Assembly (NCBI GenBank): GCA_008632985.1 | Contig: QPGO01000019.1 | Span: 62,001 to 126,000, forward strand | Direction: 5' to 3' | DNA from: Psammoneis japonica | Lineage: Eukaryota | DNA length: 64,000 nucleotides | Part shown: piece after piece, positions 1 to 44,331 of the stretch | How the letters are laid out: each line of letters opens with the position of its first letter | Numbering within the stretch: position 1 is the stretch's first letter | Program-made: the position numbers and the translations under genes | Notes under the pieces: model-generated | What the model was told of the DNA's origin: nothing | Databases searched by the model: none | What the model saw: only the letters and a program-made list of their open reading frames with translations

Positions 1-2097
1 TAATAAACAAGAACCTCCATGCCCACTTTCTAGCAGGTTTTTCTAACTGCAAAAGTTCACACGACAAACCATTTGCAAAAAGAAACAACAAACAATGGAG
101 CTGGCAAACAGAAGCTGTTTGCAATCGCTTTGCGAGGAGGTTGGCACCTTGCCGGGGCCATGACGAGGAGAGGTGCCCCGCCGGACACACACACTTTGGA
201 AAAAAGCATGCCAGAAAACCAGTTTTTGCACACATGTTTTGCTTGCGTGGTTGCCTGGAGCACAAACTGCATTTTTTGCCCAGCATGGTGCCAGCGGCAC
301 AGAGAAGGGAAAAGCGACAGCAGCTTGTGAGGGGGGGGTCATGATCATGAGCCACTTCAAATGGCTTTCTGAAACAAGAATGGCCCGCACCCCGCATTTT
401 CAAGCAAGTTGGCAGCCTGCTTGCAAAACAAGGCAGCTTCTGAACAAGCTTTAGCTGCTTTTTGGGGGCTGATCTGTGCAGCACCCATTTTGAGCAGAGA
501 AAATCTAAAAGTTGTCCATCTCCCCCCTCTCTGCAGCGCGCAAAAACTCTCTCACAATGTGCGCATGCCACACACCAGGCCTGTGCACAGGAGGAGTCAT
601 CAATGAGGGGTTTCAGCAAAAACCATGTTCAGCTTTTGCAGAGCAAACAAAAACTTGGGATTTTTCAAATTCTGCACACATGTTTCTGCCAAATCTGATC
701 AGCCAACAAAATCTGGGGTGCAGATTTTCTGCGACGCAGCACCAAGGCAAAGGCGGGCAGCAAGCAAAGCCAAGTCATCACCAGCACAGGAGAAGAGCTG
801 CTCACCACCAATGGCTGTCACAGCTTCTGGCAATGGCCAAGAAATGGTTTTGTGATGATGACACAAGCACATCTTTTTGTGTGATTTGCAGCCAGCCATC
901 ATCATTTTGCCATTCTCCGGGGGGCTTGAAAGAGGCAACAAAGTCACAGGGCACAGCTGGGCAGTCTTGCCAAGAACAAGGGTTGTGCCACAACTCCCTT
1001 GCCCGCAGCAGCCTCCACAGCAAGTGCTGCAAATTGGCTGGACCCAGCACCTGCTGTTTTGTTTGTGGTCATTGTGGCTGAGCCACAGCCCACTTTGACA
1101 TCATGGGGTTGCAACAGATTTTGTCTTGGAAGAGCATGCTGTTTCCACCCAACAAAAAGTGGACTGTGGCAGCTGCCAGCCCCACAATGCAGGTTTCATG
1201 CTGTTGGTCAAAGAGAGTTGAGAGCTGTGCAATGGATGCTGGGGTTGCAGCCATGAATGTCGTCAGCTCTTGAGGCTTCTTGGAGCATGAGCATTGGCTG
1301 GGATTTGAGAATTTGACAACATCTGGTTGCGATGACACAGCACTGGAAACCACAACAAGCTCATTGATGACAGCTCAAAGAAGCAACCTGCCTTCAAAGA
1401 AGAGCGGCAAGCGACCACACAAGCAGGGTCAAAAGAATGACGTGCCAGTTGTTTGTCAGAACAACCAGGACTTGCCGGTGGCGAACACTGGACTTCTTGC
1501 CACACGGTGCAGGGGGCTCAGGATCTTGGAGCTGTGGTGCAATTGCTGGGCAGTTCACGAACTCTGTGCTCCAGCACCCCGCTTCTGTTCCTGCTGCCGA
1601 AGGTCCCACGGCACAAAGCTGTGCTGGCCATTTGGAAAATTGGGGTGCTGCAGCCAGCGGTCAGGTTGAAAAAGAGCTTGTTTGGAAAGACCTTGATGAC
1701 ATCAAGAATGAGCAGTGACAAGTCCTTGTCCTCACCAGCAAAACCAGGCATTCGAGCTCGACACAAGCAAGGAGAGGAGTCATCCATCGCAGGACTCCCC
1801 AGTGGCTGCAATCCTGTGCAAAATGGGAGCCCAGCAGAGGATGCATCCAGTGAAAGTTCAAGGCCCCTTGTGGCAGAGAAAGATGTGGGAGCATTGCAAC
1901 AATTGATGACTTTAGAGCTGCTGCGGTCTCTCTTGGTCTGCACGAGGTGCAAACACTCAACAAATTGTGCTTGCATCGAACGAACAAGATCGCACGACAC
2001 CAATGAATCAGTGCAAGACCTGTCATGTTTCTTCCATCACTTGAATGATCAAGCTCTTGCCGTTTCTGAGCTAAAAAAAGAGAAACAGAAACTTGCA

Positions 2098-3402
2098 CAA
2101 CTGATGACACTGACGCTTTCGACCAGGTCATTGACGAATCGATCGAGATTGACAACCTCCGCGAGGCGATTCGAAGGGAATGTCCTGGTGCTCTCAAGGA
2201 GCGCCAGGAACAAGGACTTGTGCCGGACCTTCCTGCCGAAATTATCCTTTGTCTTGTGGACGAGAATGTCACCCAGCCAAGCATCAAGGGGGTCATTGTT
2301 GACATTGTGGCGAATCCCCAGCCGGACGTCCAGACTGCCGCGTGGCGCGAGTGCATCCGTGGCAGCTTCTCATGCACCAAAGTTCACTCGTGCATTGCAG
2401 CTTGGTGATTGCCCGAACACCTTGAGCTTGGGCTCAGTGGCAGCCACTGTTTTCTGCCCTTTGACAAGCGTGCATGGAATCGGTTCATTGGGCTGTCGGA
2501 GGATCCTCGTCGCTTTTGTCACGACTTTGCGTTGGGTTGGACCGCTTGCGATGGATCCATTTGCAACACACAGCCACTGATGAGAGTCAATGTATCACGG
2601 CGACGTGTTGCAGCCTTTAAATGTCACAAAGGGCGTGACAAAAACAACCTTTTGTCTGCATGCATGCTGCATCATGAATTCACAGCGGAGTGGTACATCG
2701 TGACCACTGGGCAGGAGGCCAGGGGTTCGAAACCCTGAGTGGGAGTTGTCTGCAGCAACGTTGATCACTGTCGAACGCGTAAAACTCTGTGCAGTTCTGC
2801 ACGTTCCTTCGTACGAACCCACACTGTTCCGCCAAAACCGTGCAGTGTCAGCACACGTTAGTAAAGAGCCGCATGGACGCGTGGTGCATGGGGAGGAGTG
2901 CAGTGCACAGCTGCTGACAAGAGCCAATGTGTCACGGCGACGTGTTGCAGCCTTTAAATGTCACAAAGGGCGTGACAAAAATGACCTTTTGTCTGCATGC
3001 ATGCTGCACATTGTTTGCAAGAGCAAGTTTGAAATCAATGTTCTCTGCGACGAGCGCTGGGTGTCCGTCAAGAACATGTTCAACAAGGCCTGCGACGACT
3101 GCTTTGGGATCAAGCCAAATGAATTTACCCAACTGAGCAGGGTCGAAGGTGGCAAGAGCATCACCACGTTGACGGTTCACAGCAAGCAGGACAAGCAAAT
3201 CCTTGGTCAGGCCCTTCTTCCTGTGGTTGGCGAACCAATGCTGCACTCGGCTGATGGAACCTGCCCCGAGCACAAGCGCTGCGTGAGCCGCCAGCGGATG
3301 AAGGATCTCCAGTTGACGGCGGCGATTGAAGACGATGGGTCCTTCACCTCGTCAGCCAACAAGGAGAATGTTGTGCCGCACGTGTGCAAACACCTGCTGT
3401 GA
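2098..3402 (+). pseudogene. TpA-mutated paralog of the 3' part of the gene at 16279-17987, interrupted by a small insertion
   Basis: Aligns to about 17155-17987 (DESIEIDNLREAIR, SEDPRRF, QALLP.VGEPML, ENV). Tyr codons read as Cys/His (EY>EC, FYYDF>FCHDF, AYDGS>ACDGS), and there is a TGA in place of TGG. Confidence 0.9.
2564..3013. mobile_element. 450-bp non-autonomous element with ~105-bp terminal direct repeats and an internal tRNA-like segment
   Basis: Direct repeats at about 2567-2671 and 2904-3008. Flanked by duplicated TTTG(CAA) at 2560 and 3014. Removing it restores the host reading frame (GSI-C-KSKFEI). Confidence 0.75.
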
Positions 3403-3942
3403 GCTGAAGCAACAAGCGATTGGGGCAAGAGAATGAAAAGACAATGCTGTGGAGGTTGGATCACGTGACGGTTGACTCGCCGACTTTGTGGGCAGTGCAA
3501 CGCACATGCAACAGCATTGTGGCATGACTGCATCTGGTTTGTTGCAGTTTTGCAAACTTGTGTGGCACAACGGATTCATCCCACAATTCAGCACAAGACA
3601 ACCCAGCAGTCTAGAGTGGTCGTCGAGGCTCCCCACAGCATGGAATGCTGAATGCAGGCACCAACTGATTCCACACTCTCTGGCAGCAAAGCTCAATCTT
3701 GTTGTGAAATTGAAAGGAACTGTGTGTCGCCAGCAAGCAAACTGAAACATGACAACTCTGCGTTTTTTGTGGTCAAATTCAAAACGGTTGATTCATGCAG
3801 CAGAAAGTGCTCGAATGACCAGGCGCAGGCATGTGCGCCAGCACGTTTCTCCACACTGATGAGAAATCACAACAAACAATGAGGAGACACATCCAAGAGA
3901 CAAGCAGGCAACACATCATTTTGCCCTGGCTTCTCGTGTTAA

Positions 3943-4403
3943 GGTGGTGCGGGTGCAAAAGTGGGCCAGATTCTGCGCACGTAGAGATCAGCATGTTTTC
4001 CGCCAAAGTTGGTTCGCCAACTTGAGCCCTCTCCCGGATGATGGAAACTTGGACATTTCACATGACAAAGTGCTTTGACTGCTTGGTTGCACTCCCCTCG
4101 ACTTGTTTGGGGAGAGAAGTTGCAAGTTTTCACAGGTTTCTGAGAACATGCAACGAATCTAATCAGAAAGGTGCCAAAATCGTGACGTTCAAGTTTCAAA
4201 GAGCCGTGCAAAATGAGAAACCTGTGGAAACTTGCAACTTCTCTTAACAAACAAGTCGAGTGGAGTGTAACCAAGTTGTTTGAACACTTTGTCATGTGAA
4301 ATGTCCAAGTTTCCATCGTCCAGGAGAGCTTTGGCGATTTGCGCAGAAAATGTGCTGAGCTCTGCGCACGTAGAATCTGGCCCACTTTTGCACCCGCACC
4401 ACC
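3943..4403. mobile_element. Fold-back MITE with TTAA target duplication (Kolobok-like termini)
   Basis: TIR GGTGGTGCGGGTGCAAAAGTGGG at both ends, TTAA at 3939-3942 and 4404-4407, and a further internal inverted repeat at about 4036-4141 / 4216-4321. Confidence 0.85.
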
Positions 4404-4904
4404 TTAAATGAAACAGCGCAAAACACAGCATGAGACACCAACAAGCAACGCCCCACGTCACAGTTTTCTCAAAAAATGTCATTCATTGCTCAAGGGGATG
4501 TGGCTGGGACAACTCGACATCACGCAGAAAAGACTCTTCTCCCTGTTTGTAAGAGCAACATTCTCATGTCACATCAGACATTGTCTTGTTTGAGGAATGA
4601 ATGACATTTCTGCAGTGTCATGTCAAAATGGACATGACTTCATTTAGAGAAAAAAAACCATTTTTACAGTGTGGATTTACTTGCGTCACCTCATGCATGG
4701 CAAGGTGACGCAAGCAAATGACACTGCATCACCTGCCCACAAATGTCATTTCTGCAAAAACAATGTCTGGCCACACTGAGTGCAGGAGTGCACCAGTTTT
4801 GAGGCAGAGGATGCAAGCTTTGGTGCATGAGCCAAGTGCTTGTTGTGCATGATGGATGAAGAGTGTGGTGATGCCATTTCAAAGTTCAGTGCTGATTGAG
4901 AGAA

Positions 4905-5273
4905 AAGAAATGGACAACAAGATCTGAGCTTGGTGCAATGGCCAAGGCAACCCCGCCAAGCACGAGCATCAGCAAGAGCAAGGAAGGTGACAAAGGATGC
5001 AACAAACCTTGAGCACAAGAAAAGCTGTCAGCTTTGCTCTTCATGCTGAACAAGATCCCAGCTTGGTGCAATGGCCAAGGCAACCCTGCCCAGCACAAGT
5101 CAGTGAACAACAAGGTGACAAAGGATGCAACAAACCTTGAGCACAAGGAAAAAGCTGTCAGCTTTGCTCTTCATGTCGAACAAGACCCCAGCTTGGTGCA
5201 ACAGCCAAGGCAACTCCGCCAAGCACAAGTCAGTGAAGGAGGTGACAAAGGATGCAACAAACCTTGAGCACAA
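4905..5273. repeat. ~128-bp tandem repeat (about 3 units), continuing at 12386-12505 after the copia insertion
   Basis: Repeated unit aaagctgtcagctttgctcttcatg...ggtgacaaaggatgcaacaaaccttgagcacaa. Confidence 0.85.
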
Positions 5274-5549
5274 TGACAGAAAATGAAGGCAAATGGCAAG
5301 AACTCAAACAACAACTCCTTGCTGCTGTCTAAACAGCAGATGAGTCTCTGCTCAGAAACCGTTGCAGGAGCCGAAAGACGTGCAAGTCGGTGCAATCGGG
5401 CCACTGTCATCATTCTTGTGAGCCTTGTGGCTCGAAAGCAAACTACATCGCATGCGAACGCGCGGAACTAAAGCACACAAAACTGTGTGCGGCAAACTAA
5501 ACAGCGCGCGATGTTTTGCGCGCACCCAAATCCTGTTCAAATCCTGTCA
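5274..5549 (-). repeat. 3' LTR
   Basis: Direct repeat of 12110-12385 with TG...CA ends. Confidence 0.95.
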
Positions 5550-8500
5550 CTCCCCAGTTTGCTTGAGGAGTCACAGAAACAGATTCGACTTCGGATGGAA
5601 TGAAGTTCCAGAACATGAGGGGGCGGAGAAGGTCCCAGATTTGGGAGTGACCCCAATGCTTGCTGAGAATGTCAGCAGGGTTGCGGGAGCCTTCGATGAA
5701 GTGGAACTCAAGGTGACCAGAGGCAATTGCCTCACGCACACGGTGGAACGACAGTGCGGTGTGTCGCTTGTGTAACTTGGAGTGCGGGATGGTGGCACTG
5801 TCTACAACCGACTTGTTGTCACCGAACATGTAACTGACATTGCGGATCGGGACGCCAAGGTGGCACAGGGTGATGCGCAGGTCAACAATCTGCTTGACAC
5901 AAGTCCTTGCGGCAACAAATTCAGACCCGCAGGTCGCAGTCTCCACGGTGGCTTGCTTCTTAGAGAACCAATCAGCCGGGAATTTGTTGAGGAAGTGGAG
6001 CATTCCCATGACAGAGCGTCCGGTGAGCATGCAATGGTGCAAGTTTGCATCAACGTAGTGGGTGGCAGTGATGAACTTGCCAAGGGGCAGTGGAGCGTCC
6101 TTCGGGATCATCTCTTCTGCTTCGCCGCACACGGAATGCATCCATTCACAGGCCGGAGCAGGGAGATCCGAACAGTCGGGCTCTTCCGTGCGAACGCGGA
6201 GAGCGCCGTGTCGCATCTTGGAGAGGTGCCCACAGACGCGTTTGGCACGATCCAAGTGGCCTTGACGGGGTGCAGCTCGGAAGCTAGAGAGTGACATGAC
6301 GGCCGTGGCAATGTCAATTCGACCAAGGGACACTGCCCATTGGAGTGAGCCAACAAGAGACTGGAACTTGTGAATGCCATCGGGCTCCAGCAGTTCGGAA
6401 GTGTCCAGTTCGGGGTGGTCACCCTTCTCCAGAGGTGACAGGGCGTTGGTGGTGGGTTTCTCCCCAAACAGTCGGGTGCAGCTGTCGACCATGCGCTCGA
6501 TGCACTTGCGCGGAGACAGGCACAAGGTGCCGTCGGGATCCCGGGAAAAGTCGCAACCCAGATGGAACTCAATGGGTCCCGCACCCTTGAGCTTGAACTT
6601 GCACTTTTCCGTGAGAGTGTCGACGAAAGATTGAGGGTCCTTCGTGGCAATGGCGAGGTCATCCACATAAACGGCAATGCATTCACAGTGGTCGCCGTTC
6701 CTGCGCATCCAAATGTTGGGTTCGGCGCGGCAGGAGAAGAAGCCTTCAGCTCGCAGGCAGTCGGCGAAGCGCTCGTGCCAGCGGAGACCGGAGCTGCGCA
6801 GTCCACACAGGGCCTTGTGGATGACAAGGATGTGTCCTTCGAGTTTGCCAAATTTGGGTCCGGCTGCAATGTAGAGCTTCTCCTTGGTGGTGGCTTCAAG
6901 GCAGGCATTGCCAATGTCGGTGGCCCATGTCTCCAACTCGTTGAGTTCGGCCAGGAAAATCATCAGCCGAAGGCCACAGAGGGAGACCACTCCGGAGTGG
7001 ACACTGTCGATGGGTACGTCCGTGAGGTGCCCATCGGCTGCGAGTCGTGCCTTGTGGCGACCGTTGTGTTTCACGTCGAACACCAGGTGCACTCAGATCT
7101 TCTTGTGTCCAGCAGGAGGAGTGGAAGACTCGAAGGGCCCGCAGTCATGGAAGACTTCGTATTCCCCGAGTTGGTCCATCTCGAGATTAGTTGCGTCTCC
7201 CCATTTGCGGTTGCCGTTGCGTTCGTCCAGTGACATGGCGTGTTTGCAGTTCCGGGGAACTTCGCATCCGTGCTTGCAGCGAGGTGCAGTGCGGAAGGAG
7301 CGAAGCTTGGCTTGGTTGGCCATGCGAAACAGCTTCTTCTGGCGCCTCGCGATGGCGCGGAACCGCTTCCAGCCATCAGTGTCGAGAAGTCCGTTCTCTC
7401 GTGCATGGATGGCGCAGGTGACGGGGTCATCCTTGGCGATGATGGCAAGAGGCTCGGACGTGATCTCCCCACTTTCCCATTCAAGCATGATGTTGTAGCT
7501 TGAGCCTTTCCAGGTTGGGTCATGAGGCTTCAGAGGTCCTTCGTGTGACACGATGCGTCGGAATTTCCAAACAGCAGCGTCTTCGTCTTCTTGCTCAATG
7601 TGATTCATGATGTCGTTGCAGGCAAGGACTTCCTCGCATTCGTCATTGTTGACAGAGCAGACGAACTCAGTGAGCTCGGGATTGCCGTTCACTTTCCATT
7701 CGTGGTCTTCGACGGCCTTGACGATGCGAGCTCTGTGGCGTTGTCCGTCCTCTTGTGGCTGCATGAGGAAGGTGCGTCCGATGATGTCTTGCGGATCGAA
7801 AACTGGCATCTTGGGTGTCCTGATCTCCCCATCAGGAGAATCGATGGGGTTGTCGTCATGGCGAGATTTGATGATGGGTTCAGGTGGCTCCCCATCAGGA
7901 GGATCAAGACGCAGGTTTCGAACGGCAGGATCGGTGGCAGCGGATCGTACATTGGACCGGCAGAGGATCTTCTGAGTCTCATCAGAGAGAATCTTGAAGG
8001 GCATCTGGTGGCCGACATGCTCAGCAATGCCAACAAAGCGTCCACGCAACTCACGGGATTCGGACGGCCAATCAGAGTCATCGAGGTGGAAGCACACGGG
8101 TTCCCACCAGTGAAAGCGAAGCAATGGGCTGATGTCCGGGGTGGAGCCAGTGAGAGTCTCGAGGGGCGTGCGCCAGTGGAGACGTGGGGATGCTGTGTGG
8201 TTGAGTGTGAAGCACACGCACATGAGCGCCAGCAGCCATGTGTGGGCAGGCGAACTGAAATGATCCATGACAGTGTTCGCCATGCGCTTCACGGTCTGGT
8301 GTCGACGCTCGGCAAAGTTTTGGTGTTGCTGGTGAGGCTCACTTTGCCAGCTGGAGATGAAGAGGGCTCGTAGAATCCCGAGCACCTTGTTGCTGATCTC
8401 AACTTGAGCACGGTTGCCAATGAGTTTGGATGGGGCACCACGCTCACGGATCTGATCCTCGAGTGTGTTGACAAACTCCTTGTCCGTCTTGGTGCGCAGA

Positions 8501-11170
8501 CGTCAGTGACGGTAGACTCGGTGCCAACAAACAGTTGGGCGCTGGTGCAACCAGAGTCGACGGCCGGAGTGTCGGCATGAACGGCGTCAGTGGCGATGGG
8601 CTCGTTGCGGCGGTGCACATTGAGGGCGGGGTTGGGTGATTTGTGGGCCTTCCCAAGGTGTGCACCGGCGGGCATGCGGGCGTGCTGCGTGGTGCAGTCA
8701 AAAGTACGACGGACCGCATCGGCAGGTGGGAAGCCAAAGCAAGGCCGAAGAGACTCGAAGGGGGGGTCCTTGGGTTGCACAGTGCGCTCCGGGGGCGGGA
8801 CGTCGTCGTCCTTGGGGTCAATCGCGTGTAGATGACACTCGTAGAACACGTCGTCGTTCGGAATGAGGTGATCATCGAGGGCTGACGCGTGATCGGCAGA
8901 CAAGGAAGCGGACATGATGGTCTCGTTGACAACGACACGATGACGGCAGTTGCCGCATTCGTCAAACAGGTTGGCAGTGGGATCGTCCTGCAGGTCAGAG
9001 ATCGCGTCGCACCACTGGTCGTCGTCAGTGACAGAGTGATCGAGGACGGAAGGATCCCATGTGTCATCACCGGTGAGGGTGACATGGGGCAGGGTGTCCC
9101 ATTCGGCGTCAGTGTGAGGTCGCACAGCAACACAAGGCAGGCCGCCCTTGATGTCAATGGGGGTGACACAGCCATCAGGGGTGGCAATGCGTTGCAAGCC
9201 GTTGGGCACCTTGACAGAGCGATCGTTGACATCCTGTTTGCACCATTCGAGCTGGCCGCAGGAATGGATGGTCTTGCCCTTGCCCGTGCATGCGCACTGA
9301 TGGAGGATGGTGATGATGGGACCACGCTGGGTCTCAATGACGGCACCAGCGGTGACAATGGGGATGTCCACCAATTGATGGTCGTCAATGCCCTGAACGT
9401 CGACTTGGCGAGAGGTGCGTGCAATGACGCGAATGTCGTCGCCAGCAATGCCGCCGCCATTGGCCCCACGATTGACTGGAGCACCAGCGCGTGTGGAGCG
9501 ATGAGCAGAGGCAGAGCAAATGACATTGTGATTGTCAACGCGGCGGCAGGTGTGGCCGTTAAGTTCCATGTCATCGGTGGGAGCTGGCGGAGTAGAGGGA
9601 GCGGCGGATGGCCCCGGTCGACTAGCGTTGGGGGCTTGGTTGGGAGACAACAGACGTCGCAGATCACCGGGTGGCAGTGGCTTGCGCTTGGTGAGGTGCG
9701 CCAGGATGGGATTATCTGAAGTGGCACCCACATTTGGAGCGGGGTCACCAGAGGCAGCAGGAGTCGTGTTGGACAAGTTGACATCACCGTCACTCCCAAG
9801 GCGTTGGTCGTGAAGGTTGGCCGTGATGGACTCATGGCAGTTGCTGGCTCATGGGTTGCGGGGAGGCGGACGAGAATGCCCAAGGATGATCGCCTTGGAG
9901 GAATGGGGCAACGAATCCCAAATCCGTTGGTGGTCGGGAGGGAGACGTTTCCATTGGTCACCGGTGAGGCTGGGACCACGGGTGCAGGCAGCATTGGCCT
10001 GAAGGACGTCAATGTCGCTGTCAATGTCGTAGAACACATCATCGGACGGTTCCTCGGAGCAGACGTCGTGTGCGTGTGTGGCGCGTCGGGGAGCTCGAGG
10101 TGTCGTCTTGGGTTGAAACGTGCTGTCGCATTGAGCTGCCATGGAGCGGAGCAAGCCACAGCATTGATTGCATGTGAGGCTCTTGCCACTCTGCGCACGA
10201 TGCTGATCAGCTTGGTTCTTGACAGCACGGAGTTCCTCGACAGGGTGTGCGGCATTCTCGAGCATGACGCGCTTCTGTCCTTCAGAGAAGTGGTCGCTGG
10301 CCGGGATGAGTGCCTCGCACTTGCGCAACTGATCTTGCCAATGAAGGATGAACCCGTGGGTCAGACCTTTCCAAGCACCATCACCAAGACGTGCAGCGGT
10401 GAGGTGCGTGAGCAAGGTGGAGGACTCGACAGATGTGCGGGTGGAGGCAAGTGCATGCTCAGACAAGGCACGGTGGACAGTCTGGGCGTCAGAAGACCCC
10501 ACATTTTCGCGGATGAGAGCCTTGCCCTTGTCGGTGAGAAGGATGCATTCGAAGACGGCGAACATGTGCTTTTGCTGTTCAGCAAAGAGCAGTTTGTCTT
10601 CGGGGCTGGTCGGTTTGTACGACGAGTCTAGAATGCACTCGACGTCTTGGGCACGGGCTTGTGCCACAAGTGAGGTGTGCCAAGTGCACCACTGCTTGTC
10701 GGATTTGAGAGCCGTGAAAGCGGTGGGATCACGCTTGATGCCTCGCTTGTAGTCTCGCACCGGGTCGCGTGCCTTGGTCGGGTTGGTGACATGCGGAGGT
10801 GCGAGGGGTGAGCTGCCGATGGACACAGAAGACATGCAGTCGGGGCTGAGGCGGCAGGCAAGGAACTCGTCATGCATGAACAACGAGGAGTCATTGGCAA
10901 CGTCAAGACCTTCGTGTGCTTTGACAATGTGCAGACCAACTAGAGCTGCTAACATGTTCTCATAACCGCGGGGCAAAGGGATCACATCAGTGCCGTTGTC
11001 GTGCTCAAGCGAGTCAATTTTTGGGATGGCATGAACGTGAACAGTTCTTGATGCGAGTCCGTGCCGTCTTGGGCCAAAGCCAAACGAAGAGGGCTCCCAG
11101 CACCTTGGGCAAGCACGGTTCCAACAACGTGCTCGAAACCATCGGTTTGTTGCTGACGAGTGAGAACCAT
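5550..11170 (-). pseudogene. Copia gag-pol polyprotein, disrupted
   Basis: Gag (YKRGIKRDP), protease-like NRGANGG, integrase (SEPHQQHQNFAERR), RT (IAVYVDDL) and RNase H (YVDANL, GSEFVAA, GDNKSV, NPADILSK). Split across several ORFs by frameshifts and a stop. Confidence 0.93.
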
Positions 11171-12109
11171 GGCAGACAAAAGTGGTGTCAGGACAAGCAA
11201 TTCTTGTTGGGAAGCGAAGGCAGACTTGAAACTTGGGTGAGAATGGGCTTGACTTGAAATGGACTTGACTTGAAATCTTGAACTGCCTCAAAATCAGAAG
11301 TCGCCGGGCTGCACTGTCCCGTTCGTTGTCAAGTGCTAAACTTCCCATCCGGTCCGTAGAGTTGTGCCGGCACGTCCGAACCTGCAGCCAGTGGCGCTTT
11401 GGGTTGCTTGCGAGCGGAGCAGCGGGTTGTAAACCCCTGCAGGTGAGCTGACCAGAGGTGGACAAGACCCCCGAACCGTTCTCATTTTGTGTTGGTTGGA
11501 TTTCCCGATCAGGCTGGCCAGTTGACGCAGGCGTTGGGCGCTGCGGACGAATGAACAAACACGGGAAAACACCCTCGCCCCAACGCAGGCTGCAATCACG
11601 GTTGCTTGCTCTCACAGTCGTCCTCGTGGACCTGGTGGAACTGTGGAGCACCAGCAGTCCGGGGCAGATCAGGTGCAATGGACTTGGTGTGCTTGCAGAG
11701 TGGCAGCAAAACCGCAGTCCGAAGAGTGGGCACAAGTTCTTGGCCGTGAAGATGTGCACATGTGTGCATGTCTTCAGCGACGAAGATCCTTGAATGTGTG
11801 GGGTTCTTGACCGTCAACCATTGAACGGGTGTGTCAAGGGATGAGGATCAAGGACAGACTTGGATGTGACCGTTGAATGCATGTCTTCAGCAATCAAAGG
11901 CAGCACAATCAATCCAGACATCCAGCGGCAAGGAGACTTGACGGTGACGTTAACTTCCTGCCGATGCCCTGGTGTTGAATGCACGCAGACTTGCCGATGT
12001 GCGTAGAACATGTGCGGAGGTCCACGCAGAATTGACACAGCATCGTCGGTAAATCAATGACGACGATGGCGGTTGCTCAATGGGTTGACAATGAGCAAGA
12101 CTGTTAATC

Positions 12110-12385
12110 TGACAGAAAATGAAGGCAAGTGGCAAGAATTCAAACAACAACTCCTTGCTGCTGTCTAAATGGCAGATGAGTCTCCGCTCAGAGACCGTCA
12201 CAGGAGCCGAAAGACGTGCAAGTCGGTGCAATCGGGCCACTGTCATTGTTCTTGTGTGCCTTGTGGCTCGAAAGCAAACTGCATCACGCGCGAATGCGCG
12301 GAACTAAAGCACACAAAACTGTGCGCGGTAAACCAAACAGCGCGCGACATTTCGCGCGCACCCAAATCCTGTTCAAATCCTGTCA
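12110..12385 (-). repeat. 5' LTR
   Basis: Direct repeat of 5274-5549. Confidence 0.95.
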
Positions 12386-14124
12386 CACAAGAAAAAAGCT
12401 GTGTCAGCTTCACTCTTCATGCCAAACAAGATCCCAGCTTGGTGCAGCAGCCAAGGCAACCCCACCAAGCACAAGTCAGTGAACAAGGTGACAAAGGATG
12501 CAAAGAAAGCAGAGGTTCAGGGACTTCTTGGGTTTCTGTCAAAAGCAAAAAGGGCTTTCTTGAGGATCACAGAGTTTCTCAAGATGCTGGAGCTGCTCCA
12601 AAATGTTGACAACTGGAGCTGCCACAATGCAAGTGTCCTGCCACATGCTTGTGGCAACTTCGCCTCAATGGACGAATTGATGACACAGTCAACTTTGAGG
12701 TGAGTGACGATGTGTTTTCATCCCAGGTGAGAAATGCGCGTGCGGAGGTGAGACGTTTCGTCTGTCCCTTTTCCATCGCCGTGCTTTTTGTGAGAGCAAA
12801 TCTGACTGGACTTTCCCCCGATTTTTTGTTTCTTCTTTCCACAGACATGTTTATTTTGAAAAGCCAGCCGTTGTTCTCATTGGTTGAAGGGTGCGCACAA
12901 GAAAAGCGCTGTCTCGAAAGCGGCATTTTTTGGAGTGAAACTGACAGCCATCTGCTCGTTGTTGTCACTCTGGTGCATTTGAGAGACTGTTCTGCTGTTT
13001 CTTTCACCGAATCTGACTGCTTTGAAAGAATGCACGCATTGTTCATTGTGTGAAGAGCTCATGCCAAAAAGAACGGCGTTCTAACTCTGTCATTTGCATG
13101 AGAAAAATCGGGGGAACTGACTTCGCACGTGATTTTTTTGCGCGATCGGCCATTTCAAAGATCGACTGATTTGTCAACCTGTGTGGGATGCTTGAGTGAA
13201 TGAAACAATGGGATTGAAATGGCAGCATCAAAGTTCAATGTGTGTCCAGTCATTGTGTGATTTGACATGCCCAAGTGGAGTTAAAGATGAAACATTGACA
13301 AAATTTCACCGCTCAAAATGACCAGTTCTGTCTTAGAATAAAACAAAATGGCTGCAACACTGAGATGTCGCTGATGGTGTTGTTCTGCTTTACAACAATG
13401 AAACCATCACACTTGCATCTGAGATTCTTTGTCCTCACACACCCTCAAAACCAAACACATGACAATTCTCTTGTCGGTGGCGAAATCTGATGTTGTCGCG
13501 CGACCCAAAAGCGTTGTCCATGACGACTCAAAGTGCGGACGACACATCACAAGAATCACAGCAACGTGTCATAGAAACATTCTTCATTGTCAGCATCCGG
13601 TGTCAAGCAGATGGAGCAGCGCGTTGATGAGAATCCCACTTCGCAAGCTGAGGAAGAGAGAAAGAGGCATCAAAAATGTCATGAGTCAAAAGGCCATCCA
13701 CAAGGCACAACAAAAAACAAAGATCAAATTTTCAACCACATCATCGCATTGAGCGTTGTCTCATTGACCTGTCTCGGCATTCTTGCTTCTCAGTCACAAC
13801 ATCCATTGGTGCAAGAATGGACGAGTTCATGGCGACGGCATGGTGCCATTTTCGGTTTGCGCGAATTGTGGTTTGTGGTTCGAGACATGGAAAAATGTGT
13901 TTTCACTGTCATGGAGCTCGTTTTTTACTAAGATTTTTGGCACTGAATGTACGTCTCATGTAGAAACACGTAGAAAACCTCGTGATGTGTCCAAAAGTTT
14001 CTCACCTGGGATGAAAACACATCTGACACCCAAAAGGTCACAAAGAAGTGCTTGATTTTGCTTTGCAAACAAAAGCAAGGTGATCAAAAAAATGTGTTAG
14101 AAAAAGTGAGATCGTGTCCAGACC

Positions 14125-14735
14125 AGCAGCTTCAGGGTTTGGTGTTGAGTTTTTAGATGCTGCACTTGGCATTCTGTTGAACTGTGCCACCTTGTGACAT
14201 GGTTGTAAAAGGTGGAGAAACACGGTGTCTGCACCTCTCCCGCCACAAAGTCATGGTGGCAAAAAATGAGGAGCAGAGGCCAAGCTTTTTTGCACTTTTG
14301 TGGCCATGCAGCAGCTTCAGGGTGCAGTGTTGAGTTTTCAGATGTTGCACTCAGCATTCCATTGAACTGTGCCACCTTGTGATGTGATTGAAAAAAGTGG
14401 AGAAATGTGGTGTTTCGGCACCTCTCCCGCCACAAAGTCATGGCGGCAAAAAATGAGAAGCCAAGCTTTTTTGCACTTTTTTGTGGTGGCCATGATGCAG
14501 CAGCTTCAGGGTGCAGTGTTGAGTTTTTAGATGCTGCACTCAGAGCCTCAGCATTCCATTGAACTGTGCCACCTTGTGACATGACTGTAAAATGCAGGGA
14601 AACACTGTGTTGGCACCTCTCTCGACAAAGTCACGGCGGCAAAAAACAAGGAGGAATGGAGGTCAAGCCACCCCACATTTACACTGCTCTGCAGTGGCTT
14701 CAGGGTGCAGCACTGGGTTTTAAAAAGCTGCATCT
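14125..14735. repeat. ~185-bp tandem repeat, about 3.3 units
   Basis: Repeated gcagcttcagggtgcagtgttgagtttt...gaactgtgccaccttgtga...gcacctctcccgccacaaagtca. Confidence 0.85.
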
Positions 14736-15020
14736 GGCTTTCTGTTCAAGGTCAAAATCTCACTGGCTTCGAAAAGTGAGCTTTGGAACGAATCTGATCA
14801 CTGCAAACGCAACATGAGATTAGAAACAAGAATCGAACCCCAGGCCTCTGCAGTTTTCTCATTTTCTGCGAAGCGCGCTGCCGGCACCACTGAGCTTCCT
14901 CTTCACACCAAGAAATTGCGCAGCCAAGACGCAAGCAGGTCAAGCACCAGGTCCACAGAGCAACACACCCAGTCATCATAAATGTCCGGTGTTGTCACAG
15001 TGCTGTACATCCCTGCTCAC

Positions 15021-15331
15021 GCACACGAACCACCTGGTGGTCCGTGTGCATTTTTGGGTGCACACGAACCACCTGGTGGTTCGTGTGCACCCTGCGCGAA
15101 ATGCTGCGTAGATTTGCACCGAACAAATCTGAGTGCTGCAAATCCGACATGGGATCTGCGTGTTTGTGCCACTCAACACTGGCCACCGAGCCGGCAGTCT
15201 GTGCCGGCCGTCGTGAAAAATATTTTGTGTCAAAGAAAGAGTTCGTCAGGGCCGGTGAAGAACACCCCACTGCGATGCGACCGGCACAAAATGTGCGTAA
15301 ATGCACAGGAACCATCATGTGGTTCGTGTGC
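15021..15331. repeat. Three copies of a ~29-bp hairpin-forming motif
   Basis: GCACACGAACC-N7-GGTTCGTGTGC-like sequences at 15021, 15060 and 15303. Confidence 0.7.
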
Positions 15332-16278: not shown

Positions 16279-17987
16279 ATGGCTCCTGCTACCGGAAAGC
16301 GTCAAGGCTCCCTCGGGTGCCCTTGTAAAGGATGCATGTATTACTTTGGTAAATCGTTAGACAAGGCAGAGCGCACAAAGGGCGCAAAGATTCTTTGCAA
16401 GTTCTGCAAGCCCTTCATGGAGAAATCGTTGGCTGACGGTGTCTTTGAAGACGACACGACGGAGGCACTCTTTCGAGTTCTCAAGCACTATGAGCAAAAG
16501 AAGCACATGTCGAAGCTCCCATGGGTATTGAAGAATCAAAAGACTCTGAAAGAAAACAAGGTGTAAGTAATCAAGTTGTTTGCAGTTGTCGTATCATTTC
16601 ATTCGTCATCTCAACGAGTGCCTTCTGTTCGTTCATCAGCGAGTATCGAGCAAACTCGAGTCTCAAAAAGAAACAAGATCGCGATGAAGTCAGGGAACTG
16701 AAACTTGCCGGAGACCTCAAGGGTGTGGTCGAGAAGGCAAAAACGAGCGCACCGGCAAGACGTGCACAACAGCTTCGCGAGACGCTCGAGCGGGCAGGGC
16801 AATCCACGGACAACCTTGACGGTATGAAACTCCTTGCGACCAAATACACCAAGTTAGCTGCATGCGCTGCTACTGACGCAAGCTTGAACGTGTGCGAAGG
16901 CCAATTCATCATCGTCATGAAGGGTGCGTCCGCCGACAGTGCTAGGGCAGCAGCACTAGACGCTCACGAACTACGAAACGTCGTTTACTTGCACTCCCAC
17001 AAGCACGGATTTGATCCACACAAGCTTCCTACCTTTTCCCATTCCATTCGTTTTGGTATATGCAAGTGCGCTGCTGACTTGTACGAAGACCGGTATGATG
17101 ACGAAGACGAAGAGAATCCACTCCGAAACTCCAAGCTCCTCAGGAAGTGCTTCAGTGCTGACGATACTGATGCTTTCAACCAGGTCATTGATGAATCGAT
17201 CGAGATTGACAACCTCCGCGAGGCGATTCGCAATGAGTATCCTGGTACTCTCAAGGAGCGCCATGAACAGGGACTCCGACCTGACCTTTCTACCGAAATT
17301 GTCCTTCGTCTTATTGATGAGAACATTACGAAACCAACCATCAAGGCGTTCATTGTTGATATAATGACGGATCCCCAGCCGGACGCCCAGACTGACGTGT
17401 GGCGCGAGTGCATTCGGGGCGGCTTTCTATACACCAGTGTTCGCTCGTCCATTGCGGCTTGGTGGTTGCCCGAGTATCTTGAGCTTGGGCTTAGCGGTAG
17501 CCATTATTGGTTGCCCTTTAACGAGCGCGCATGGAATCGGTTCGTTGGGCTATCGGAGGATCCTCGTCGCTTTTATTATGACTTTACGTTGGGTTGGGCC
17601 GCCTACGATGGATCCATCAAGCCTTGGGGGTTTCAAATCATTGTTCCCTACGACGAGCGTCGGGTATCCGTCAAGAATATGTTCATCCAGGCCTACGGGG
17701 ACTACTTTGGGATCAAGCCGTATGAGAGTTCCAAAATGACTAGGGTCGAAGGTGGTAAGAGCGTCACGTACCTAACCGTTCAACGTAAGCAGGAAAAGCG
17801 AGTCATTGCACAAGCGCTTCTTCCTACGGTTGGTGAACCAATGTTGCTTTCGGCCGACGGAGCCTACCCCGAGCGCAAGCGCTACGTGAGCCGCCAGCGA
17901 ATGAAGGATCTCCTGTTGATGGCGGCGATCGAAGACGATGGGTCTTTCGTTTCGTCCGCCGACAAGGAGAACGTTGCGCCCTACTAG
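16279..17987 (+). CDS. Unknown protein; N-terminal CxxC...CxxC, C-terminal possible LAGLIDADG-like domain; 2 exons
   Basis: Exon 16279-16562, GTAAGT...CAG intron 16563-16639, and exon 16640-17987 join in frame. Normal Tyr and TpA content. Confidence 0.8.
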
Positions 17988-19450: not shown

Positions 19451-19599
19451 TAACTTCCTGTTTTGCAACCATGGGAAATCACACACCGCACTTTTTTACA
19501 CGAAAGCAGTGCGCTGCACACATCGAGCTTTTGCTCCCAACGACAGCTGCATCTGCTCAAGGCAGTGACTGCTGATGCACAAAAAGCAGATGCCAGCAC

Positions 19600-20900
19600 A
19601 AGTGCAAGCACCTGCCACCTCAGCAGGCTGACAAAACCAAATTCGAAAACCACCAGTGTGTGTCCTTTGAGTCTGTGCCAGACCCTTGTGCAGGTTGTGT
19701 CTTCTGAGTGCCATCTAAAGAGCACATCTTGTGCTGTTGTCCATTCTTTGGCCACTCGTCCTCTTCCAGGAGTTGACCCCAGCCTGTGGTGAGCTGCACT
19801 TGGGGGCGGCTTTCCCAAAGCATCGGACTGGCAAAGTTGTCATTGACAACTGACCAAAAGGTTGCAACGAGCTGGCTGTGCTTTTGGATGGTTCCCAAAT
19901 TGCACTCACCAGCCCTGCTGCTGGACTGTTCTCTTTGACCTGCTTTGCATGCTCCCTGATCAACTTGCTCTGCTTCGTCAAAGCCTCTGGGCACACTGGA
20001 GTGTGGAGCGCATCTTTGTCTTTCTTGTCACAGGAGTCAGGACATCAAGAGTGATCTTGGACTTTCCACCTTTCTTCAACCATTTTCCCATTTTGCGCAT
20101 GCCTGTGGAGTGCTTGGCAAGCCACCAGCAGTGCCCTGTTGCCAGCTGGTTCACAACTCTGTCGATGGCCCCGGGGCTCCCAGATGACACTCTCTGGAAA
20201 CCATCTCTCACCAACCTTCATTTTTGTTGGACCCAGCGTTGACAGAGTTTCGCGCCACACAAGTGATTGAAAATTTGTGCCAGAAGCTTTGTCAAGATCT
20301 TGCATGCACTGGCAAATGCTGGCAATGTTTTGTCTTGCACCAAACATTGTTTCTGTGTTGGCCAGTTGCAAGTGGCATGTTGCCATCCTTGCTTTTGCAA
20401 GATCATCCATTTCTGTGTTGAGACGTGCCCAGCACCTGTCTGACTTGCATCTTGGCCTTGAACCTTGAGGATCTTTGACCCATTGGCTCCAGTGGGGTGT
20501 TCTCTTGGCCAGTTTGTTCTTGGCAGTGCTGGGCAAATCAAAAAAGTGATTGGAGCATGGCATGACTGGCTTGCATGGATCCAACATTCTGGTGAGCACC
20601 TGGGGTCAGTGCTGGGGTTCTTTGGGGGTTCTTGCTCTCTGTCGCATGCCACCTCAACTGCTCTGCGGCAGCTTGGAGATCAGCACATCTCACACTCCCA
20701 ACACTGCACACTCCAGCTTCAAAATCACCCAAGCATCATCAAGAAAAAGCTTGCCAAAGGTTCATTCCCAGCACAATGTGGTGAAAAAAGAGTTGACAAG
20801 CAGATCTCAAATTCTCCCTGGCACTCCTGAAGCCCAGGTGATGCCAATTTTTTCTGCTCAGCATGGCAGCTCCTCCACTTGTTTGCAGCGTCTTGTGTGC
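19600..20900 (-). mobile_element. Heavily degenerate non-LTR retrotransposon 3' region (RNase H-like / Cys-rich tail)
   Basis: Residual peptides WVKDPQ...DRCWARLNTEMDDLAK and WWLAKHSTGM..GKWL resemble LINE RNase H and C-terminal motifs. The tract is almost TpA-free. Confidence 0.5.
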
Positions 20901-21049
20901 CACATCGTCAAAGCTGGGTTTTTTTGTTGAGGACTCTGCAGCTTCCAAATGGTGCTGGGGCACACAGGCATTTGTGCAGCGCAAATTTGTGCTGAACTTT
21001 GCCTCTGTCAAAAATTGGCACCTCTCCTGGCACTCCAGCTGATGTGACT

Positions 21050-22154
21050 GATGCACTCCAGCCCTGAGCGCAACTCATCCATTTGGTGTTGGGCACCTGC
21101 GGAATTCCACATGTTGCAATCTCCATGCCAAAAGCATTTGGGCAATGAACTTGTTGACAATTGCCAACAGAAAAAGAGGCAATTTTGTGAAAGCACAGAC
21201 TTGCTCATGCTTGAAGTGCATTGTCTCCAGCTTCACATCAAAGAATGCCCCCAGCCAATTTCTGTTCTTGCAAATGGTCATAACATGAAGCCTTTGGCTT
21301 TGCAAAAACAGGGAGCATGGGACAATTTTGTAGAATGGTGCAAACAGAAATGTGTGTGAGTGACATGTGGCACATTGTCAAAAAAAAACTCTCTTGTCAC
21401 AGCCCAGCAACACCAGGCCCCACTTGAGCTGGAGTGCATCAGTCCTGGGCAGGACTCCATGTGACACTTGGCTTGCAAGACTCTGCTGCATGTGAAGAGC
21501 TCTGCAGCAAAACTGTTGGGTGATGAGTGCCGATGTGTCAAACATTGCCAACAGAAAAATGTCCATTTTGCAAATGCTTGAACACACACTCGTGCTTGTG
21601 GCACATCATCTCCAGTTTGCCTGGGTGTTTTCTTTGGACATTTTGGAAAATGCTCGCAGCCAGCTGTGTTGTTCTCACAAGTGCATCATAAAAAAACTCT
21701 CATGTCACACAGCCCAGCAGTGCAAGGTTCTCTTGCCCAGAGCTGGAGTGCATCAGCCCCGCCCTGGGCGGGACTCCATGCGATGCAGGCCAACAGAATT
21801 CTGCGTGCAAAGCTTCGTGGTGGTTTGTGTGCTGGGTGACAAACAAATTTGTCTTGGGCATCTGAACAAACAACCAAGTTTGCAGCACAGCTGCACCTCT
21901 TCACACTTGCAAGTTTTGAAAATCTGCCTGCACCGCAGTGCCACTCCACAAAAACATTTGAGGTTGGCTTCTTCATGCAAAACACAATGTTGTTGCTTTG
22001 AGCAGATTGCCAAATGGCTGAGCTGCAAGCAAAACACCACTGAGTTTGTGCAAAAATGCACGTGCATGACATGTGGCACACACAACAACAAAAACACCAG
22101 CACCGCGGTCCGGCAGCATGACATCCCACACCTGCTGCGAGACTGGAGCGCATC
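21050..22154 (-). mobile_element. Tandem array of about 3 decayed copies of the 390-bp MITE family
   Basis: Units end in ctggagtgcatc / ctggagcgcatc (about 21440, 21754, 22154) and share ttgccaacagaaaaa and gaattctgcgtg with the copy at 43943-44331. Confidence 0.65.
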
Positions 22155-23128
22155 GCACGCAGAGCCGCTCTCCCATTCTTGGTGCCCCACCCATGAAAGA
22201 GCAAGGTGGCTGGGTGTCATTGAACCCATCTGTTTTGTTGCAGTGGCACTGCAGCTCATGTTTTGTCACTTGTTTTTGTGGCGCAAAAGAAAAATTTCAA
22301 CGTGGCTCAAACAAAGCCGTGCCGTGAGCTCAGCCAAAAGAGAGACACTTTTTGGCAGCAAATGATGCACAACAATGCCAAGACCTTGCAGGCACCCCTC
22401 CCTCCTCTGTTGCTTTGTGTTGTGTTTCATGGCACTGGCATGTGCTGCAAAGCTCACTTTGGATTTTGAGCGCGGGTGTGAAAACTTGTGTGTGTGCGCG
22501 AGACAAGCAAAAACGCAGGGTGACTTTGGTGTTTGGTGAGAGAGCAGATGCTGCAGCACTGTGTGGTGGAAAAGAGAGTTGGTGGGGGAGAGCTCCCCCT
22601 GCTTTCTGATGAGGATGCTGTGTCCGTGTGTGCCACCCAGCAGTTTTGGGCACATCGCCGGCCCACAACCAAGGCCCAAAAAAAGCAACTTGAGACGAGG
22701 GCCAGTGCTGCTGTCAGCACACCACCAACAAAAAATGGTTGGGGTTGGTTGCACACTTCTCTGTTCCACCTTCATGTAAAAAAGGCGACATCTCTGTCAA
22801 GGATGCCTTTTTTGCCTTTGCCAAATGCTTCTGTCTCTTTTTTCGACGTCACATGTCAATCTGTCGACAGTGAAGACGGTCATCTGCTCTCATGCTTTTT
22901 TTCGTTGCCCCAAAATGTCCATCGATCTGTCATCAGTGACTTCGGACAAATCTTACGGATCATCTCGTTAAATGTTTCAGGTTTCAGAACTGCACCATGA
23001 AATCAAGAATGGATCAAAAGAATGCGAACGATGCGAGATGCAAAAAGCCGATTGTTTGATGCCTTATCGTCGCTCACACAATGTAACATACGTGAAAACA
23101 CACAAACGAAACATACTCTTTCCTGAAT

Positions 23129-26100: not shown

Positions 26101-26199
26101 ATAAATAAGTTCAAGGCCAGTGTCGCGACCAGTCAGCGGGGTGTTTCAAGGATGATGAAAGCTCTAGACAGAGCAGTTGTGCCATTGTGTGACAAGTAG
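23129..26199 (+). CDS. GLUG-motif repeat protein with two GLUG-rich modules, a PKD/Ig-like linker and a helical C-terminus; one frameshift near 24072
   Basis: Many VGGLVG / GGLVG repeats and F.G.FDG.GHTI motifs in both ORFs. Adding one A at GGAATTC joins 23129..24118 to 24004..26199. Confidence 0.85.
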
Positions 26200-26539: not shown

Positions 26540-27480
26540 ACATGTTGGATGAACCGTGCGAGGTTTCTACATGCCAAGATCTAAAGAATGTCGACTTACA
26601 GGGCGTGGACTTGCACCATGTCTTGGTGTGCAACATTGACCGTGAAAATGGTGACAGAATTCCTCCAATTGGATCTGTCAAGACCAAGCCATTTGCAGGG
26701 ACGTTTGATGGAAGGGGGTTTGCAATCTGAGAATTAAACATTGGCTTCAGAGACGACTCAGACATTGGCCTGTTCTGGAAAGTTGTTGAGAATCCTCCGT
26801 CGACCGCCACAGTTTCCAATCTTGTCTTGGAAGACTTTGCATTGGTTGGCAGGACCTGTGTTGGAGCGCTTGCTGGTGGCACATGTGGTGGAGGAGTCTC
26901 AATCGTGAATGTCACTGCACAACCAGCTCAATTCCCAATCAACACAATTTTGAGGAGTTCCAAAGATGTCATGTGCAGCTGGCAGCAAGCAACTGAGAAA
27001 GAAGCAAGGAGAAGTGCTGCAATCTCTCGACAAGCTCAAGGCCACAATGATCTCTGCAGAAAAGATGAAACCAACCTTTCCCAAGTTTGCTGGTGACCTT
27101 GGGACAAAAAATGGAAGCACTGCACCACAAATCTGCTGGAAAAGTTCATCAACACATTTTAAAGAGCAGACGCCATTGATGACAAGACATCCAATGCCAT
27201 CAGGGGCATTTTTGGTCACATGCAAAATCCAAGAGAGAAAGGAACAAGTTCAAGGCCGGTGTTTTTTGCCAGTCAGCGGGGTGTTTCAAGGATGATGAAA
27301 GCTCCAGACAGAGTGGTTGTGCCACTGTGTGACAAGCAGGTTGAAAATGACACTTTTGCACTTGCAAAGAAACACTGCAACTCACCTTTGAAACCCAGAA
27401 GGGACATTTGCAAACTGCAAGAAGTGTGATGCTGCCTGAGGAGCTGATTCATTCTCCATTGACAAGAACTCACCGTTGCA
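26540..27480 (+). pseudogene. Internally deleted, TpA-mutated tandem copy of the GLUG gene
   Basis: 26540-26915 matches about 24600-24970 and 26918-27480 matches about 25770-26345. STYQD>STCQD, HYVLAY>HHVLVC, STYGGG>GTCGGG. Confidence 0.92.
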
Positions 27481-43942: not shown

Positions 43943-44331
43943 GACGGGCTCCAGTCCCAGGACCGTGTGACATTGGGCCCGTGGAATTCTGCGTGCGAGC
44001 TCCGCAGCAAATTTGTGCTGCAATGAAAATGCAAATCATCGCCAACAGAAAAAGAGGCAATTTTGCGAAAGCGTCTCCTCCTTCATGCTTGTGGTGCATC
44101 ATTGACAGTTTGCCCGGGCACATTCTTCAGACATTGAAGAACATGCCCAGCGCATTTTCACTCTCACAAATGTTGAAAATAGAAAGCCTTTGGCTTCGCA
44201 AAACAGGGAGCATGAAACAATTTCGCAGAATTTAGCACATGGAAATGTGCGGCGTGACATGTGACACGATCCAAAAACTGTTGATGTCACAGTGCAGTGG
44301 TGCGAGGTCCCACCTGGAGCTGGAATGCATT
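43943..44331 (-). mobile_element. 389-bp MITE, inverted TpA-mutated copy
   Basis: Both ends are reverse complements of the 38864-39253 ends, with TSD GATT (43939-43942, 44332-44335). Confidence 0.85.

Follow-up and report, generated by a model that had tools for sequence, protein, structure and literature searches.

The two long terminal repeats (LTRs) of a Ty1/copia retrotransposon in the diatom Psammoneis japonica have diverged at TpA dinucleotides on both DNA strands, each repeat having been hit separately after integration. The element lies on the minus strand at positions 5274-12385 of a 64,000-nucleotide stretch (GenBank assembly GCA_008632985.1, contig QPGO01000019.1, positions 62,001 to 126,000 of the forward strand), referred to herein as the window and used for all coordinates. 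From comparisons of its sequence, we judge with a probability of roughly 0.8 that the chromosomal DNA of the element underwent post-integration, TpA-specific hypermutation that is targeted to blocks. A second and slower process, the decay of CpG, ran alongside it.

The LTRs were hit independently and on both strands

The features of the element and its insertion site are as follows.

5274-12385, minus strand: Ty1/copia LTR retrotransposon, diatom CoDi-like (from LTRs, target-site duplication and RVT_2)
12110-12385, minus strand: 5' LTR, 276 bp, TG...CA ends (from LTR alignment)
5274-5549, minus strand: 3' LTR, 276 bp, TG...CA ends, 22 differences from the 5' LTR
5269-5273: target-site duplication CACAA, left copy (read directly)
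12386-12390: target-site duplication CACAA, right copy (read directly)
5550-12109, minus strand: internal region, a single polyprotein of ~2,100 codons (from open reading frames, ORFs)
6487-7071, minus strand: RVT_2 (Ty1/copia reverse transcriptase) domain, residues 8-202 of ORF 5497-7092, E = 3.6e-22
4916-5273: 130-bp satellite, 2.8 copies, insertion target of the copia element, resuming at 12386-12503

The element is embedded in the 130-bp satellite, which is found on both flanks, and an uninterrupted satellite unit runs through the CACAA pentamer (...gagcacaaggaaaaag...). Because they have TG...CA ends, share the CACAA duplication and interrupt an otherwise intact satellite unit, 5274-5549 and 12110-12385 can be taken as the LTRs of one insertion. 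They form the sole intact LTR pair within the 64-kb window. The LTR ends, the 5-bp duplication and the location of RVT_2 near the 3' end of the polyprotein are those of a Ty1/copia (diatom CoDi-like) element.

This one pair of LTRs was aligned without gaps over 276 positions, a check that had been proposed when the window was read from its letters alone (the sequence-only reading). The pattern obtained is beyond chance: the LTRs differ at 22 of 276 positions, 21 of the 22 differences are transitions (p = 1e-9 versus an expectation of 1/3), and 18 fall in pyrimidine-purine (YpR) steps, which cover 144 of the 276 positions (binomial p = 0.004). When sorted by class, four sites have CA in one LTR and TG in the other, three have TA facing another YR step and seven have CG facing another YR step, while CG is shared at 15 sites and TA at 2. 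All seven site pairs quoted in the sequence-only reading are present, and TA does survive in one LTR at some of them, as had been reported (left LTR at 5445 and 5498; right LTR at 12329, the counterpart of 5493). In the following lines, left denotes 5274-5549 and right 12110-12385.

5334-5335 CA (left) versus 12170-71 TG (right): discordant double site, probable ancestor TA
5363-5364 TG (left) versus 12199-200 CA (right): discordant double site, probable ancestor TA
5411-5412 CA (left) versus 12247-48 TG (right): discordant double site, probable ancestor TA; loose-end family contigs have TG
5512-5513 TG (left) versus 12348-49 CA (right): discordant double site; family ~56% CA, 40% TG, 4% TA
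5493 CA (left) versus 12329 TA (right): single site; the family majority is T (61%), so the change was TA to CA in the left LTR
5445 TA (left) versus 12281 TG (right): single site; one family contig has TA at 5444-45
5498 TA (left) versus 12334 CA (right): single site, presumed ancestor TA

The earlier list of differences held these pairs and omitted a second, ordinary process, CpG decay, to which seven CG-versus-TG/CA differences (5349, 5450, 5452, 5453, 5459, 5488 and 5517) belong. Four further differences, at 5293, 5303, 5357 and 5421, were also absent from it.

The 11 differing positions of the TA class are LTR-specific and include both strand types. Since TA to CA and TA to TG each occurred in one LTR only, both strands must have been hit after the LTRs were duplicated, and at the LTR-discordant sites the change is thereby placed after integration. 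The LTR-specificity and the two strand types also rule out editing of the sense RNA and a reverse transcription error common to both LTRs. The sequence-only reading had claimed independent hits in double-stranded chromosomal DNA, which would exclude ADAR-type RNA editing and reverse transcription error. Independent hits on each LTR and both strands are borne out, as is the exclusion of sense-RNA editing and shared reverse transcription error; the substrate may have been double- or single-stranded, and for the LTRs taken alone late editing of single-stranded complementary DNA (cDNA) or gene conversion keeps some probability.

With a TA origin for two shared, three single and four discordant sites, the maximum-likelihood loss is 0.71 per LTR, a value that matches the coding region, where 20 of 28 conserved Tyr codons have become Cys or His. 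At least three sites at which the family has TA (5392, 5402 and 5408) were lost identically in both LTRs, approximately the number expected under independent hits. Over three adjacent sites at 5402-5412 the left LTR has CA-CA-CA and the right LTR CA-CA-TG, and loose-end family contigs (from sequencing runs X1 and X2) have TG-TG-TG. This hints, on few sites, at short-range hits coordinated by strand. In a runs test done by hand, TG and CA products followed one another along the polyprotein in 10 runs versus ~11 expected, and thus showed no strand-coordinated clustering at the scale of the polyprotein.

Homologues, family contigs and paralogues polarize the change from TA to TG or CA

The polyprotein frame runs on the minus strand from 11813 down to 5497 (~2,100 codons) and is interrupted by two in-frame TGA codons (9849-9851 and 7093-7095) and one frameshift within 8289-8502, a zone in which family contigs carry an extra C after 8494. 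The RVT_2 domain retains its YVDD motif, and its ORF has 120 homologues among the matches listed, at 55-70% identity, one of them named as from Cylindrotheca fusiformis. Three ORFs upstream of RVT_2 had no Pfam family and share 30-59% identity with the N-terminal parts of full-length homologues.

We compared the element with its homologues over 502 alignment columns conserved among the 120 proteins. At the 28 conserved Tyr columns the element has Tyr 5 times, Cys 14, His 6, Phe 2 and Trp 1, while the other informative residues are kept (Trp at 14/14 columns, Gln at 6/6, Cys at 5/5 and His at 21/22). Fifty codon changes could be assigned unambiguously to a single step, comprising 18 TA>TG, 7 TA>CA, 9 CG>TG/CA, 4 other transitions and 12 transversions. 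The N-terminal half, which is weakly conserved, gave the same picture when compared with the homologue P0229, as 27 homologue Tyr residues face Tyr 2 times, Cys 8, His 7 and other residues 10; the reverse case was seen in none of 9/9 pairwise comparisons.

Further copies of the family were available as contigs from four runs (X1-X4) of one sample of one study, which may be the assembly's own data and hence do not count as independent support; the contigs were placed on 4900-12109 at 80% likeness. The copia family is very abundant (X1 alone supplied 13,730 contigs), and transitions account for 409 of 456 variable places. Family frequencies could be taken from 40 of the 468 variable places listed, and among these 40 there are 13 at which the window has TG or CA and 31-90% of the family depth has TA; these are sites of recurrent TA loss that are polymorphic across copies. 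At nine others the window has TG or CA where CG makes up 95-100% of the family depth, and these represent private CpG decay. Homologue and family evidence meet at position 6503, where Tyr197 has become Cys in the element and 90% of the family has TAC.

Four paralogue pairs, in which one copy belongs to a TA-poor block and its partner to normal sequence, provide a comparison outside the retrotransposon. TA in the normal copy faces TG or CA in the depleted copy at 82 sites, and the reverse holds at 2; for CG, loss in the depleted copy was counted at 87 sites versus 13 for the reverse. One copy of each of the four pairs is intact. Together, the conserved Tyr columns, the family contigs and the paralogue pairs establish, at the level of sequence comparison, that the change ran from TA to TG or CA. 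The assumption of the sequence-only reading that TA was ancestral is thus upheld in general, although at four of its seven LTR sites the ancestor is deduced.

CpG decay is a slower process acting in parallel

CpG decay accounts for the seven CG-versus-TG/CA differences between the LTRs and is a parallel, slower process. Per-lineage divergence, integrated over time, came to 0.015 for background sites, 0.21 for CpG and 1.24-1.71 for TA. About 70-80% of the TpA steps of the element are gone, at about 80-110x the background rate per dinucleotide, and TA loss was about 6-8x as fast as CpG decay in the copia element. The observed/expected ratio (o/e) of CG is 0.80 in the element versus 0.10-0.28 in the blocks that are most nearly free of TA, and TA loss therefore saturates before CG loss.

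TA loss is confined to sharp-edged blocks and depends on flanking bases

The element lies in one of several regions of the window that are almost devoid of TA. Ten depleted blocks amount to 26,471 bp, or 41% of the window, with TA o/e of 0.02-0.15 and CA/TG at 1.5-1.9, and their edges are sharper than 200 bp. Outside the blocks TA o/e is about 0.4-0.9; the host genes form long ORFs without interruption, and Tyr makes up 2-4.7% of host ORFs. Besides the copia element, satellites and some unidentified sequence, the blocks contain partial duplicates of ORF 16494-17984 and of two genes, one with GLUG motifs and one for an RdRP.

1-15172: TA-depleted domain of four adjoining blocks (1-2662, 2819-12129, 12152-13954, 14130-15172), TA o/e 0.07-0.15
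19529-22914: TA-depleted block, TA o/e 0.02, CG o/e 0.28
26691-27615: TA-depleted block, mutated partial duplicate of the adjacent GLUG-motif gene (from paralogue alignment)
39382-40890: TA-depleted block, mutated partial duplicate of the RdRP gene region 45042-46251 (from paralogue alignment)
43167-44586: TA-depleted block (from TA o/e)
48724-50954: TA-depleted block, CG o/e 0.18
60210-62390: TA-depleted block, TA o/e 0.02, CG o/e 0.10

In the first domain, 1-15172, lie the element, satellites and, at 2101-3377, a mutated paralogue of ORF 16494-17984. This ORF, on the plus strand, is intact and encodes 497 aa with 4% Tyr and no Pfam family; its TA-stripped paralogue lies 14-15 kb upstream within 1441-3399 (2101-2560 and 3027-3377, 81-83% identity). 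The RdRP gene (PF05183; 45283-47172, minus strand) stands ~5 kb from its own partial duplicate at 39291-40905, which has lost TA at a ratio of 23:1 and CG at 44:2 while the gene copy is intact. Immediately after the GLUG-motif genes (23096-26196) comes a partial duplicate in tandem (26551-27480), which is hypermutated, with TA lost 16:0 and 12:0. As the changes occur only in sharp-edged blocks and the neighbouring genes are spared, the process behaves as targeted editing or defence rather than as a genome-wide bias.

The survival of TA is biased by the bases that flank it. The ratio of TA survival in depleted blocks to that in normal sequence was as follows.

CTAA: 0.36
TTAA: 0.34
CTAG: 0.16
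GTAA: 0.14
CTAC: 0.12
ATAA: 0.10
GTAC: 0.09
ATAG: 0.04
ATAC: 0.02
ATAT: 0 (0 remaining in blocks; 93 in normal sequence)

By hand calculation, both halves of the site contribute to these values in a roughly multiplicative way. Viewed from the target A, a 3' T makes the site most susceptible and a 3' A least. Loss of TA also removes stop codons: over six frames the element has 17 TAA and 25 TAG, versus 167 and 163 in a 10 kb gene region. With these two stops nearly gone, reading frames of the blocks stay open over long distances in all six frames, and the copia element alone has 20 overlapping ORFs of at least 100 aa. The products of the blocks are rich in Cys and His and have no Tyr, and such long six-frame ORFs might be annotated as genes.

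Nineteen ORFs, taken from depleted blocks and from the upstream polyprotein, matched no Pfam family, and a repeat search on four block regions revealed no clear terminal repeats at block ends. Within the TA-depleted domain, a perfect 26-nt inverted repeat (12709-12734 and 13998-14023, arms 1,263 nt apart) may mark the termini of a small DNA transposon. At 14124-14749 there is a tandem array of four units of ~185-194 bp, whose copies differ largely at CA/TG/TA, for example TTAG versus TCAG. Among the host genes, 35803-36762 encodes a magnesium-dependent phosphatase whose named relatives are almost only from diatoms (best identity 65%), which by itself assigns the window to a diatom.

Alternative explanations

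The differences between the LTRs could have arisen by CpG decay alone if the discordant sites had been CG at insertion and a different strand had been deaminated in each LTR. CpG decay is real here, as seen in the seven LTR differences, in the nine window sites where the family retains CG, in the in-frame TGA at 7093-7095, which falls at a conserved Arg column, and in the low CG o/e (0.10-0.28) of the oldest blocks. However, given 15 shared and 7 single CpG sites, 0.41 discordant double sites would be expected versus the 4 seen (P(>=4) = 8e-4), and the joint fit of a CpG-only model to the LTR sites is poor (chi2 7.1). At 5512-13 the family has the mixture of CA, TG and TA given above, unlike true CpG sites, which are kept in 95-100% of copies; for the other three sites the argument comes from the model. 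CpG decay also offers no account of Tyr>Cys/His at 20/28 columns or of the 82:2 loss of TA in paralogues, and a CpG origin of the four CA/TG-discordant sites therefore seems unlikely. The opposite polarity, a cytosine deamination resembling repeat-induced point mutation (RIP), with CA and TG ancestral and TA as the product, shares with our reading that transitions fall in repeats at YpR steps, and two sequences alone cannot polarize them. It is refuted by the depletion rather than enrichment of TA in the blocks (o/e 0.02-0.15), by the intact Trp (14/14) and Gln (6/6) columns and the identity of both in-frame stops as TGA, by the scarcity of TAA and TAG over six frames, and by the direction of change in the paralogues.

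A change made before or during integration, by editing of RNA or single-stranded cDNA, or gene conversion from other copies, draws on the great abundance of the family and its polymorphism at exactly these TA sites (TA 31% to 90%), on the sense-strand excess of TA>TG, and on the sites 5392, 5402 and 5408 that were lost identically in both LTRs. We consider it improbable. Independent hits should yield identical losses about as frequently as discordant ones; the LTR loss of 0.71 equals the coding loss of 20/28 and leaves little room for pre-integration change; and, because the TA-derived differences are interleaved with private CpG changes, many short conversion tracts would be needed. DNA that was never retrotransposed, namely the flanking satellite and the tandem or nearby partial duplicates of host genes, is equally hit. 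In addition, the main text of a preprint on Bigelowiella natans describes the same signature arising de novo in single-copy chromosomal DNA (10.64898/2026.01.13.699255). Some private letters of the window have no supporting contig in the four runs, as expected if TpA modification in silent chromatin had been misread as CA or TG during base calling or assembly. Such an artefact is very unlikely, since read-built contigs carry both TA and CA/TG variants at intermediate family frequencies, block edges are sharp and host genes normal, the near-total absence of TA over 2-3 kb exceeds noisy miscalling, and unrelated proteins of other assemblies (2/120 and 8/150) show the same Tyr>Cys/His pattern.

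Several points weigh against TpA-specific hypermutation of chromosomal DNA as we describe it. At four of the seven LTR sites listed earlier (5334-35, 5363-64, 5411-12 and 5498) ancestral TA was deduced rather than read directly, and all evidence that uses the LTRs as a clock comes from one LTR pair. At private sites such as 5357, 8261 and 10436 the letter of the window is present in no contig and so has no independent read support. The excess of TA>TG over TA>CA on the sense strand (18:7, p = 0.043; 37:19, p = 0.022 once the counts of one paralogue pair are added) might reflect a contribution linked to transcription or RNA, although the bias is reversed in a hypermutated relative, P0279 (Cys 3, His 10). 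Lastly, the 3' flank preference is unlike that of natural ADAT substrates, which have G, A or C after A34.

Discussion

Our data are best explained by a very fast, TpA-specific mutation process that acted on the chromosomal DNA of the copia element after its integration. TA to TG would represent A>G on the strand read and TA to CA the equal change on the opposite strand, and independent hits on the two LTRs would then leave CA against TG, or TA against CA or TG, at matching sites, with CpG decay proceeding more slowly in parallel. The process is limited to sharp-edged blocks of transposons, satellites and dead duplicates of host genes, with neighbouring genes spared. As to the chemistry, an enzyme may deaminate adenine at 5'-TA-3' in DNA (A>inosine>G), with silent chromatin or small RNA as its possible guide. 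Our leading guess, at somewhat less than even odds, is a DNA adenine deaminase, perhaps ADAT2/TadA-like as suggested for Bigelowiella natans. tRNA adenosine deaminases act in a U33-A34 context, to which the obligatory 5' T at the target can be likened. No ADAT2-like deaminase is encoded among the Pfam-annotated ORFs of the window. Oxidation of thymine at TpA would leave a sequence footprint identical to that of adenine deamination. Aberrant repair of the TDG type was also considered and does not fit, as it acts in a TpG/CpX context and yields CpG (PMC4041421).

TpA-directed A:T>G:C hypermutation of chromosomes has one prior report, the 2026 preprint on B. natans, and the diatom would be the second lineage. 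In the main text of that preprint, on which our comparison rests, mutation-accumulation lines of B. natans acquire A>G/T>C changes at no dinucleotide other than TpA, with a rate of ~6e-7 per site per generation, within one integrated giant-virus (NCLDV) region and one virophage region; the de novo rate is ~1000x background and episodic between lines, and the authors propose an ADAT2-like DNA adenine deaminase (Mettrop et al., bioRxiv 10.64898/2026.01.13.699255). The B. natans genome is also described there as having 124 clusters that are poor in TpA and rich in CpA+TpG, with RT and DDE domains enriched in TpA-poor genes, and its main text makes no mention of diatoms, LTRs or retrotransposons (10.64898/2026.01.13.699255). 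As far as that text goes, the two cases agree in the restriction to TpA with TpG or CpA produced by strand, in the long-term depletion of TpA with gain of CpA/TpG, and in the hitting of discrete foreign or silent regions while the rest of the genome (B. natans) or window (diatom) is normal. They differ in host, a rhizarian versus a stramenopile, and in targets, giant-virus inserts in B. natans versus satellites, dead gene duplicates and an LTR retrotransposon in the window. The footprint described here is deeper (TA o/e 0.02-0.15 versus 0.45 for the B. natans NCLDV region) and comes with a flank preference, and our evidence is comparative, using the LTR clock, homologues and paralogues, whereas that for B. 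natans consists of de novo mutations. Our literature searches returned no report of TpA-directed hypermutation in diatoms, and wider searches returned only papers on RIP and on dinoflagellate 5-hydroxymethyluracil in addition to the B. natans preprint.

RIP changes C to T at CpA, creates TpA and stop codons, and mutates both copies of a duplication. Like RIP in ascomycetes, the process in P. japonica is DNA-level, transition-only and dinucleotide-specific, has sharp borders and inactivates transposons. Unlike RIP, A>G at TpA destroys TpA and removes TAA and TAG, and the gene copy is spared while the dead copy is hit; the window accordingly lacks both the TpA excess with stops and the mutation of all duplicate copies that mark fungal RIP. 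The deamination of 5-methylcytosine at CpG likewise gives TG or CA on either strand after integration and is active in the same blocks, but its substrate differs, it is about 6-8x slower, and it has no route to Tyr>Cys/His. ADAR editing of retroelement RNA and APOBEC editing of cDNA are editing defences aimed at retroelements, and A>G with a 5' U/T preference recalls the change seen here. They act before integration, on one strand and normally on both LTRs, whereas here both strands were changed, the LTRs differ and DNA other than retroelements was hit. ADARs are not known outside animals.

A Tyr>Cys/His footprint is also seen in 2 of the 120 listed homologues, which are 60% identical to each other, and in 8 of 150 cluster representatives of copia RT proteins. 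At 17 conserved Tyr columns, P0302 has Tyr 0 times, Cys 10 and His 5. The proteins with the footprint (P0302, P0279, P0374, P0353, P0249, P0310, P0360, P0313, P0103 and P0023) come from other public assemblies and from copia families distinct from the element of the window, and their Cys:His ratio varies.

With a second case, in a diatom and much deeper, this process would no longer be a peculiarity of one species. The LTR pair provides an internal clock, by which it is post-integration, affects both strands and outruns CpG decay. The spurious long ORFs and the conversion of Tyr to Cys or His can mislead gene prediction, the dating of transposons and protein databases. Whether diatoms possess an adenine-directed counterpart of RIP, guided by chromatin or small RNA, acting on both strands, shared with chlorarachniophytes and perhaps ancient in the SAR (stramenopile, alveolate and rhizarian) clade, is in our estimation evenly balanced. 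If true, it would constitute a new class of eukaryotic genome defence, the editing of adenine in DNA, and a candidate source of natural DNA adenine deaminases, and the footprint in 8 of 150 copia representatives would mark many more hosts.

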